DNA from: Atribacterota bacterium
Lineage (GTDB): Bacteria; Atribacterota; Phoenicimicrobiia; Phoenicimicrobiales; Stramentimicrobiaceae
DNA length: 37,722 nucleotides
Reading direction: 5' to 3'
Assembly: GCA_040767965.1 (NCBI GenBank)
Contig: JAXGNR010000015.1
Location: forward strand, 1 to 37,722
Positions 36,163 to 37,722 of this stretch are shown here, one piece after another. How positions within the stretch are numbered: the stretch's first letter is position 1; every line of letters starts with the position of its first letter. The position numbers and the translations under genes are program-made. Below the pieces are notes generated by a model. The model was not told where the DNA came from, searched no databases, and saw nothing but the letters and a program-made list of their open reading frames with translations.

Positions 36163-36909
36163 ATGTTGTTAAAAAATTGTATTGCAATTATAACCGGAGC
36201 TGGCAAAGGTTTAGGCAAAACGATGGCAGAAGAATTTTTTAAAGAAGGCGCCTATCTTGGCTTATTTGATATTCAGTATGATTTGGTAGATGACCTTGCA
36301 GAAAAATTAGATCCCTCTAAGGAAAAAGTTTTCCCGGTTAAAGCTGATGTAACTGATGAAACTATGATAAAAAATGCAATGGAAGAAGTCTTTACTAAGT
36401 TTGGTAGAATTGATATTTTGGTTAACAATGCCGGGATTTCATTACATGAACCAACCAAAGAAACGTCTATAGGAAACTTTAATAAGGTCATCAATATTAA
36501 TCTAAATGGCACATTTATTTGCTGTAAAAATGTGATTAGCTACATGGAAAAACAAAAAAGAGGAAAAATTGTAAATATTGCTTCCTTGAGCGGAAGAACA
36601 GGCAGACCGGGAGTTGGTGTAAACTATGCTGCTTCAAAGTCAGGTGTTATTGGATTAACACAAACCTTGGCTCGTGAGTTTGGCCCTTCAGATATTTATG
36701 TAAATTCTATTTGCCCGGGTCCTATATTAACTGAGCAGACTAAACAATATTCAGCGGAAGTTTTTGCCAGCTGGAATGCCGGTAGGGCAATTAATAGAGA
36801 TGGTATACCTGAAGATATTGCCAATGCAGCAATATTTTTGGCCTCAGATAAATCAGACTGGATTACCGGGGCAACCCTTGATGTAAACGGTGGTATTTTA
36901 ATGAGATGA
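36163..36909 (+). CDS. Classical short-chain dehydrogenase/reductase
   Basis: TGAGKGLG, NNAG, S...YAASK, ITGATLDVNGG; Asp after beta-2 (FDI) suggests NAD. Confidence 0.93.
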   Translation: MLLKNCIAIITGAGKGLGKTMAEEFFKEGAYLGLFDIQYDLVDDLAEKLDPSKEKVFPVKADVTDETMIKNAMEEVFTKFGRIDILVNNAGISLHEPTKETSIGNFNKVININLNGTFICCKNVISYMEKQKRGKIVNIASLSGRTGRPGVGVNYAASKSGVIGLTQTLAREFGPSDIYVNSICPGPILTEQTKQYSAEVFASWNAGRAINRDGIPEDIANAAIFLASDKSDWITGATLDVNGGILMR

Positions 36910-37280
36910 TTTTAAATAGAATATTAATAATTAATATAAGCTGATTATCTTGATTTTCAATAAAATAACATAGTATCATAATAAAATCACGATGAGTTTT
37001 AACTAAGAAAATTATCATGTTTAAATATTATTCTGCTAGTAAATTATCTTTATTTTTTGCCAATATTGATCTTTTGCAATTTTTAAAGCCACTTAATAGT
37101 TCTCCTTTATTAACATATTTAGTATGTACAAATAATAAAATAAATAGTTATTAGTTGAGAGTATTTCTTGTATTAGATGTAATAATCATATAAAAGCATA
37201 TTTTGAAGATTCAAGTACTAGATACTTGTACTATACAAATATCTCTTAAATTATTAAATTATGCTATCATGATACTCAGA

Positions 37281-37460
37281 AGAGTTTGCAGTAGGCAAGG
37301 TCAGCTATATTACAGGAGCCACCTGATAAGGTGAGCTCGATAATAAGATGGACCGCCCTTCTCCAATCTTGGACAGTATCAGAAGCGAAACAGATTAAAT
37401 CTGATTTCAGCTTGGGTTGCCACAAGTAAAAGTTACAGAAGGGCGACCCACACAAACTCT
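37281..37460 (+). ncRNA. Candidate IS110 bridge RNA
   Basis: Closing stem AGAGTTTG/CAAACTCT encloses two stem-internal loop-stem modules: GGTC..GACC with a GAGC-CACCT/AGGTG-GCTC hairpin, and GCCCTTCT..AGAAGGGC with an AAGC-GAAA-CAGAT/ATCTG-TTTC-GCTT hairpin. Confidence 0.75.
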
Positions 37461-37490
37461 CCTAATAATAAATCAGGAGGTTTCTCTATA

Positions 37491-37722
37491 ATGTATTATA
37501 TCGGAATTGATGTGTCAAAGAAAGCCCTATCTGTGTTTGATGGTAAAACAAGTTTAGAATTTGAAAATGTAGCAGGTCTAAAACCCTTCTACTGTTATCT
37601 TAAAAAACATTACAAGCACTTTGATAATCTGGTTTTAATATTTGAGGCTACCGGCATCTATTCAGACTCCTTAAGGGAATTCTGTGCTACTCATCAGATC
37701 AAGGCCTATATTCTAAATCCTA
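37491..37722 (+). CDS. IS110-family transposase/recombinase, N-terminal RuvC-like DEDD domain (partial, not in ORF track)
   Basis: Hand translation MYYIGIDVSKKALSV...LVLIFEATGIYS...AYILNP: GIDVSK, EATG.Y and NP motifs; AGGAGG RBS at 37475-37480. Confidence 0.93.
   Translation, partial: MYYIGIDVSKKALSVFDGKTSLEFENVAGLKPFYCYLKKHYKHFDNLVLIFEATGIYSDSLREFCATHQIKAYILNP

Follow-up and report, generated by a model that had tools for sequence, protein, structure and literature searches.

The stretch of DNA analyzed here, referred to below as the window, is the entire 37,722-nt contig C15 (GenBank JAXGNR010000015.1) of an Atribacterota genome (GCA_040767965.1; 2.33 Mb, 30 contigs, 32.8% GC). Its final ~500 bases correspond to the left part of an IS110-group element, and the contig stops within the recombinase gene. 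Positions 37227-37722 very probably represent the left portion of an IS110-group insertion sequence (IS) whose leader carries a bridge RNA of the IS621 type. An earlier note on this DNA had proposed an IS110-group element with a bridge RNA in its left end, and the proposal is borne out by the match of the recombinase to PF01548, by the alignment of a complete homologue (L077) to the IS621 transposase and by the conservation of the leader.

The limits of the element were set by homology. In more than 12 loci, the similarity starts exactly at CT-TGTACTATAC (position 37225 in the window), the DNA to the left being unrelated, and right-end similarity stops at ACAGTAT-CT (ACAGTATCT) in C27, L021, L022, L040, L042 and L077. 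The latter is the right end that had been predicted for the element, found on contig C27 and on 5 homologous complete or right-end-bearing elements. The sequence CTTGTA, formerly taken as the candidate left end, is present twice, at 37168 and at 37225, and the claim holds for the second copy, where the homology starts. A left end at 37168 (CTTGTATTAG) was rejected; this copy is probably due to chance, because the flank spanning 36910-37224 resembles no IS copy or other locus. The full layout can be seen in L077, a metagenome contig located by searching with a 20-nt stretch from the first loop of the window, which is 93.6% identical to the window's part of the element and whose DNA to the left of CT is unrelated. 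L077 holds a complete element of ~1.28 kb, with the left core at 19-20, an intact 313-codon open reading frame (ORF) at 287-1225 and the right core at 1300-1301; its left end measures 266 nt and its right end ~73 nt, with CT at both junctions. A long non-coding left end (264 nt in the window), a short right end and a common core dinucleotide conform to the layout of the IS110 group. Homologues of the leader were found in 22 of the 61 related genomes searched, that of the window included; within the order, the figure is 20 of 52 genomes.

The ORF that opens in the window (77 residues) matches PF01548 (DEDD_Tnp_IS110) at 19.3 bits, under the cut-off of 29 bits because it is truncated. The C27 fragment and the full-length homologue of L077 lie above that cut-off (35.7 and 51 bits, respectively) and also match PF02371 (56.8 and 56.6 bits), the domain containing the catalytic serine, found within ESGSS in C27 and ESGTS in L077; the window contig ends before that region. 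For both proteins, the alignments show the D, E and D..D residues as well as the ESG serine. The L077 protein aligns to the IS621 transposase (residues 1-306 to 7-314; E 2.1e-25) and matches ISCro4 nearly as well (E 6.6e-25), while the best match of the C27 fragment in the PDB is ISCro4 (E 4.1e-22), followed by IS621 (E 1.1e-20). The identity to IS621 and ISCro4 is ~30%, a value estimated by eye from the printed alignments, since the tool gave E-values only. The nearest relative, from a metagenome-assembled genome (MAG) labelled Atribacterota, is 88% identical, followed by one at 61% from a MAG labelled Actinomycetota, with remoter relatives in Campylobacterota (36-41%) and in Runella and Spirosoma (30-31%).

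The features of the left portion and its flank are as follows.

37218-37224, forward strand: left flank of the window copy, CTAGATA, with the boundary set by homology; the 7 nt facing the left target guide.
37225-37226, forward strand: core dinucleotide CT at the left junction, where the homology of copies in other genomes begins.
37227-37490, forward strand: non-coding left end of 264 nt, predicted to encode the bridge RNA.
37229-37234, forward strand: TACTAT, candidate -10 half of a circle-junction promoter, deduced from counted positions.
37262-37270, forward strand: TGCTATCAT, candidate extended -10 of a resident promoter, with TGnTAnnAT kept in the homologues.
37282-37288, forward strand: GAGTTTG, 5' strand of the closing helix (7 pairs, 99.2% of cells paired).
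37299-37354, forward strand: putative target-binding arm, with basal stem GGTC:GACC, left guide TATATTAC at 37306-37313, upper stem-loop at 37316-37338 and, on its 3' side, right target guide TAAG at 37344-37347 and handshake AT at 37348-37349.
37355-37444, forward strand: putative donor-binding arm, with basal stem GCCCTTCT:AGAAGGGC, left guide ACAGTATC at 37373-37380, upper stem-loop at 37383-37415 and, on its 3' side, right donor guide ACAAG at 37422-37426 and handshake TA at 37427-37428.
37453-37459, forward strand: CAAACTC, 3' strand of the closing helix, present in the comparative fold and in the minimum free energy (MFE) structure of the window.
37460-37480, forward strand: hairpin TCCT...AGGA, pairing with part of the ribosome-binding site AGGAGG (37475-37480).
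37491-37721, forward strand: DEDD recombinase, first 77 codons, ended by the contig, with the first D (IGIDVSK) and E (IFEATG).

The leader, spanning ~37279-37460, folds into a closing helix between its 5' and 3' ends and two arms, each made of a stem, an internal loop and a stem-loop. The two arms abut at 37354/37355, and the ~16 nt preceding the first one pair with the 3' tail. The four loop motifs listed in the earlier note are all found where it had placed them, namely TATATTAC at 37306-37313, AATAAG at 37342-37347, ACAGTATC at 37373-37380 and CACAAG at 37421-37426. The MFE amounts to -71.4 kcal/mol (z -4.55) for 37270-37495 and to -63.6 kcal/mol (z -4.95) for 37279-37465, and in each case 0/200 shuffles fold as well. 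The single-sequence structure for 37279-37465 contains both the first arm and the closing helix (AGAGUUUG:CAAACUCU), with the base of the second arm folded otherwise, while the two-arm form with both basal stems was derived from comparative analysis. In the latter, the structure of the earlier reader was written out, with the addition of a short basal stem for arm 1, and its pairs were counted in an alignment (A1) of 19 distinct leaders. This resulted in 92.5% of 788 cells being paired, versus 30.2-49.8% when the partners were slid by 1-3 columns. Changes on both sides were observed in 7 pairs (23 cells), compensatory changes occurred in both upper stems, and the covariation score or the paired percentage was reached in 0/500 shuffles. 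Three covarying pairs lie in the upper stem of arm 1 (in 4, 7 and 2 sequences), and the top of arm 2 covaries as well. When RNAalifold was run unguided on the same leaders, it returned a 7-bp closing helix, the upper stem of arm 1 and both the basal and upper stems of arm 2. The closing stem and two arms with internal loops that had been read from the single sequence are thereby supported, as is the covariation that had been suggested as their check.

The sequence GAGTTTG might be explained otherwise, as a conserved DNA or protein-recognition motif rather than one strand of an RNA helix, the bridge RNA then consisting of the two arms alone. Five of the seven closing-helix pairs are invariant in the 19 leaders, the 5' strand is nearly identical even in the Campylobacterota relatives with 36-41% protein identity, and a copy of it also exists in the right end, all of which would suit a motif of this kind. 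In contrast, the helix is part of the window's own MFE structure, and L033 alters both sides of one pair, from U-A to C-G, this being the only double compensatory change in the helix. Furthermore, when the Campylobacterota leaders were folded singly, in 5/6 MFE structures RRGAGTTTGTT at the 5' end again paired with AACRAGCTC at the 3' end, by means of a longer helix showing G-U variation; the sixth leader is cut at its 5' end by the start of the contig. On this balance, a DNA motif without a helix is unlikely, and the closing helix is retained as part of the RNA. The right-end copy deserves a description in its own right. It reads GGGAGAGTTTGTG and is found ~20 nt before the terminus (C27:785-797 (L002), L077:1267-1279, and also L021, L022, L040 and L042). 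It nearly repeats the 5' strand of the closing helix and is perfectly complementary to the 3' strand of that helix (window 37449-37460). L022 has a T-to-C change in this copy together with an A-to-G change in the 3' strand of the RNA.

The second arm is, by its sequence, the donor-binding loop (DBL). Its left guide, ACAGTATC, is identical to the right-end terminus in 6/6 right ends (those of C27, L021, L022, L040, L042 and L077), and its right guide, ACAAG (37422-37426), is complementary to the CTTGT of the left end. L033 has T in place of C in its guide and likewise in its right-end core. In 16/18 leaders (counted by eye, with L033 set aside), the base that directly follows the right donor guide is, moreover, the complement of guide position 7. 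With ACAGTATC reading as the terminal bases of the right end and ACAAG pairing with the first bases of the left end, the arm would recognize the circle junction ACAGTAT-CT-TGTAC. The earlier note had called this guide IS621-like, and the IS621 donor that it gave is printed in the methods of PMC13396178 as ACAGTATCTTGTAT, that is, ACAGTAT-CT-TGTAT, versus ACAGTAT-CT-TGTAC here.

The first arm behaves, at the level of the family, as a target-binding loop (TBL), as judged by comparing guides with flanking DNA. The comparison comprised the 22 elements with both readable; L028 and L043, in which a left end was not found, were excluded. Agreement of the 7-nt guide with the left flank of its own element is 7/7 in 5 elements, 6/7 in 6, 5/7 in 6, 4/7 in 3 and 2/7 in 2, with a mean of 5.32/7 versus 2.44 for non-self pairings. 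The observed sum was reached in 0/100000 permutations, a figure that overstates independence, since the homologues are kin; nevertheless, distinct guides plainly accompany distinct flanks. The right target guide fits the first 2 flank bases in 5/5 elements with both known, and the handshake dinucleotide that follows it is AT in 22/22 elements and complements the last two bases of the donor. Insertion sites thus resemble loop 1 in the family (5.32 versus 2.44 in 22 elements), but not in the window copy (2/7). The target formerly deduced for the latter, TATATTA-CT-TATT, fared similarly: it follows the rules of the family, but it matches the copy's own flank, CTAGATA-CT, at 2/7 and that of L077 at 4/7. 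Its right part, TATT, was too long, because the rules of IS621 give a right guide of 4 nt (core plus 2), and the target was rewritten as TATATTA-CT-TA.

As for the insertion sites themselves, many of those of the window subgroup (L017, L019, L020 and L077; e.g., L077:1-20 and 1300-1330, and window 37206-37226) fall within short runs of 7-nt units of the form NNNNACT, in which the core CT is the CT of one unit (observed by eye and unquantified). In another subgroup (L022, L024, L026 and L040), also by eye, insertion is found at the foot of a GC-rich palindrome (GGGTTCGAT..ATCGAACCC|CT). The left junction of L016 reads ...CCAGCTA-AC-TGTAC, or CT-GTAC minus one T, in place of CT-TGTAC, corresponding to either a mutated core or a 1-nt deletion at that junction; its guide otherwise matches at 6/7.

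Briefly, the element would work as follows. Guided by TATATTAC and TAAG, insertion would be directed at TATATTA-CT-TA, the invariant AT that follows the right target guide would pair with the last two bases of the donor, like the 'handshake' of IS621, and the DEDD/Ser recombinase would swap strands at the core CT. That the RNA is transcribed, that a promoter forms at the junction and that the recombinase is catalytic are inferred for this element. With regard to the promoter, IS110 elements have been described as reconstituting one at the circle junction (PMC11208160). TTGACT at the right end and TACTAT at the left end, separated by a 17-nt spacer across the circle junction, would fit such a promoter, supplying a right-end -35 and a left-end -10 in the same manner as IS621 (spacing counted here). 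A resident promoter may be provided by TGCTATCAT, which would put the RNA start near 37277-37283 and yield a bridge RNA of ~180 nt. Contigs of relatives from RNA libraries of two studies overlap this region: X15 covers 37246-37720 with 25 differences, and X17 covers 37392-37667.

The relationship between the window and C27 requires some caution. C27 starts with a 248-codon ORF open at its 5' end, which is the remainder of such a recombinase gene, and overlaps the end of the window by 34 bases with 2 differences (plus additional ones at the ragged ends). Because L015, a homologue in one piece, is colinear with both, the window part and the C27 part represent one kind of element. C27 was not accepted as the other half of the window copy itself. 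Since the overlap differs and the genes adjoining the end of C15 and the start of C27 sit on separate contigs in G009 and G014 (both relatives having both), it appears that C27 is probably another copy, i.e., a sister copy, or a strain variant of the window element. The right flank of C27, CT-TGTTAG, is similar to the element's left end (an 'RD-like' half-site); it fits the right guide of the window at 1/2 positions and is not assignable to the window copy. An empty site was not recovered in 6 relatives, which show no conservation of the intergenic sequence following the SDR gene. None of the sequencing runs contained half of the sampled words (best 0.41). Among 4 runs compared, run X2 provided a contig identical to the window over 37000-37238; neither joints nor empty-site reads were found in the 4, the parts they leave uncovered carrying no weight.

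Besides the kinship of the homologues, several observations weigh against the proposal of a bridge-RNA element in the window. The window copy is cut by the end of the contig, and the right half on C27 probably belongs to another copy. The basal stem of arm 1 is weak (69.7% of cells paired), and the closing helix and several basal pairs are nearly invariant; because they hardly vary, these are compatible with pairing and barely tested. A search of Rfam with 36900-37722 at E up to 10 returned only 2 unrelated chance matches, to a microRNA and a long non-coding RNA (E 6.3 and 8.8). A simple consensus promoter scan found no promoter on the forward strand of the left end and did not pick up TGCTATCAT, and the RNA-library contigs reveal neither transcript starts nor that the RNA is made. 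Finally, the window guide, TATATTA-C, matches its own flank, CTAGATA-CT, at 2/7, the level of the background (cross-pairing mean 2.44), and L077, the only other element found with an identical 20-nt guide stretch, occupies the site CTTATCA-CT-CATT, matching at 4/7 on the left.

The window copy is thus among the two worst guide/flank matches of the 22, and it is not at the site that its guide, as read from the DNA, would program; the right guide of L077, TGAG, fits its own right flank at 2/2. The most likely cause of the misfit is either an off-target ('half-match') insertion or a change in guide or flank after insertion, and IS621 has been reported to insert at sites fitting a single arm only (10.64898/2026.08.31.748434). 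The possible courses of events are an insertion off target, an alteration of the loop post-insertion or a rearrangement of the flank by recombination between copies. A contig from run X1 has the same flank and left end with a different target loop and compensatory changes in the stem, which would fit an exchange of target loops; it may also be a chimera formed across the 70 nt common to the copies. In the own genome, TATATTACTTA is present in 4 exact and 125 one-mismatch copies (core fixed), a count that is uninformative because no copy is occupied in the assembly. An exact match to the 20-nt stretch of the window was also found in L076:949-968, an unrelated metagenome contig without IS context, probably by chance in a very large collection.

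These observations could be integrated into a broader view, which is distinctly improbable as a whole. In the Atribacterota clade, as well as in its distant Campylobacterota relatives, the bridge RNA would be a closed three-way junction, the target loop would be exchanged between resident copies, and the copy of the helix strand at the right end could couple folding to the state of the element. The exchange would occur by recombination across the near-identical sequences that flank the target loop, which would thus be swapped as a cassette, while the right-end copy of the 5' strand could compete for the 3' strand of the helix. If cassette exchange were true, copies would carry guides unrelated to the site that they occupy, a form of natural reprogramming.

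The misfit could also indicate that the window holds a relic, namely a left end that has been truncated or is decaying, or else a bridge-RNA fragment on its own, immobile and with a guide that has drifted since insertion. Besides the match of only 2/7, this is in agreement with the contig stopping within the ORF and with the existence of leader-only partial elements in relatives (L019, L020 and L027). However, the 77 codons are open and the catalytic D and E are kept, and none of the columns invariant among the 19 aligned leaders is altered in the window row (as the definition of 'invariant' implies). Drift would have required 5 substitutions in 7 guide positions while the leader stayed ~90% identical to those of L015 and L016, and L077, a complete element that is 93.6% identical and shares the left guide, keeps its 313-codon ORF intact. 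A relic is, in consequence, quite unlikely.

Almost no credence can be given to the notion that the fold is only a cis-regulatory 5' untranslated region (UTR) of the recombinase mRNA (e.g., a translational attenuator) with no guide RNA involved, which might be suggested by the TCCT...AGGA hairpin overlapping the ribosome-binding site (97.2% of cells paired in the 19 leaders, with no compensatory change) and by the fact that the guide role of this RNA is read from sequence, but which leaves unexplained the tracking of each left flank by loop 1 (0/100000 permutations), the identity of loop 2 to the element's own termini and the region-by-region match to the IS621 bridge RNA as described in PMC11208158. 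The two roles could coexist, and this hairpin may also regulate the translation of the recombinase within an element that carries a bridge RNA.

Several partial or additional IS110 elements were observed in the course of the analysis. L032:700-804 is a miniature element in which a left end (up to ...ATGATACTGGAAGAGTTTG) is directly fused to a right end (GAGTTAACTTTCGGCACAGTATCT) via a common AGAGTTTG motif. Lacking both recombinase and bridge RNA, it has the appearance of a deletion derivative; 188 nt upstream of it is a second remnant resembling a left end. L020:1132-1406 contains a partial element of 189 nt, made up of the left end, the target arm and one half of the donor arm. On either side of it is a perfect 43-nt direct repeat of flank sequence that ends in the core CT. 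Target duplication is not expected of IS110 elements. The genome of the window contains, in addition, a right-end-like remnant at C19:796-840 (82% over 45 nt, ending in ACACATCATCT), a different intact IS110-family gene with a 421-codon frame at C10:63474-64523 and a fragmented one with an internal TAG at C8:127369-128426. Downstream of the ORF in L051 (Campylobacterales), the right-end terminus TTTTTAAGGTGGCAACTGACCC is found twice in tandem.

The comparison with IS621 places the element within a known system. The IS621 RNA has been described as 177 nt long, with a 5' stem-loop (nt 1-33), the TBL (34-98), a linker (99-109) and the DBL (110-177) (PMC11208160, PMC11208158); its left target guide reads like the top strand to the left of the core, and its right guide is 4 nt long and complementary to the core plus 2 (PMC11208158). 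As in IS621, the recombinase, as judged from L077, has DEDD and Tnp(Ser) domains that align over the full length, and the RNA is encoded upstream of the gene, within the left end, its target loop preceding its donor loop. The guides on the left (8-9 nt) have the sense of the top strand; those on the right are short, with a terminal AG that faces the CT core, and a handshake dinucleotide follows each of the latter. Unlike IS621, for which the host is enterobacterial, the host here is an uncultured low-GC anaerobe (32.8% GC) and the predicted target is AT-rich; the protein is, by estimate, only ~30% identical. The RNA also departs from IS621 as those papers describe it, in that it has neither a 5' stem-loop nor a linker, and its 5' 16 nt pair with the 3' tail. 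The closing helix is thus, as had been suspected, distinct from the IS621 5' hairpin, one joining the two ends of the RNA and the other being a local stem-loop (PMC11208160, PMC11208158). Because the 5' stem-loop of IS621 has been described as dispensable for specific contacts (Hiraizumi et al. 2024, PMC11208158), the closed scaffold is a real variant rather than a failure of the mechanism. A distant blastn search of E. coli genomes with the leader gave no match, and in a tblastn search of plasmids the 1685 records all showed <60% identity. A Salmonella element was considered as IS621 and rejected (E 3.3e-49 to 8wt6).

ISCro4, or IS622 (PDB 9t56; 10.1101/2025.05.14.653916), which has the same domain order, is the second-best PDB match to L077 and a distant orthologue, the likeness being here one of protein. 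The IS1111 group, with its seekRNA, has the recombinase family and the RNA-guided principle in common with the element (PMC11208160). In contrast, that group is described as having its RNA in the right end, long subterminal inverted repeats and donor-binding bases that are often within a multiloop (PMC11208160), whereas in the present element the left end carries the RNA and the right end has only ~73 nt (L077).

Bridge RNAs have been predicted in 85.7% of IS110s (Durrant et al. 2024, PMC11208160). The claim of a new RNA-guided recombinase orthologue stands, therefore, in a less remarkable form: because bridge RNAs are already predicted for most IS110 elements, the one described here is one more orthologue of a known system and would not surprise a specialist. 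The literature search retrieved no report of a bridge RNA for Atribacter, of an IS110 bridge RNA with a three-way junction, or of one with the 14-nt junction string; the supplements of IS110 surveys, which were outside this search, may list the orthologue or the scaffold.

Bridge recombinases are under development for the programmable insertion, excision and inversion of DNA, and each well-read natural orthologue widens the material for comparison. In this family, an IS621-like donor accompanies a recombinase only ~30% identical to that of IS621, and a closed junction ties both loops into one scaffold, which is relevant since the two loops in one IS621 synaptic complex are reported to originate from two RNA molecules (PMC11208158). 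The family also provides a natural series of 22 elements with guides that can be read against their sites. Within that series, the window copy represents a natural case of a site unexplained by its guide, and as such it bears on the 'half-match' behavior described for IS621 (10.64898/2026.08.31.748434).

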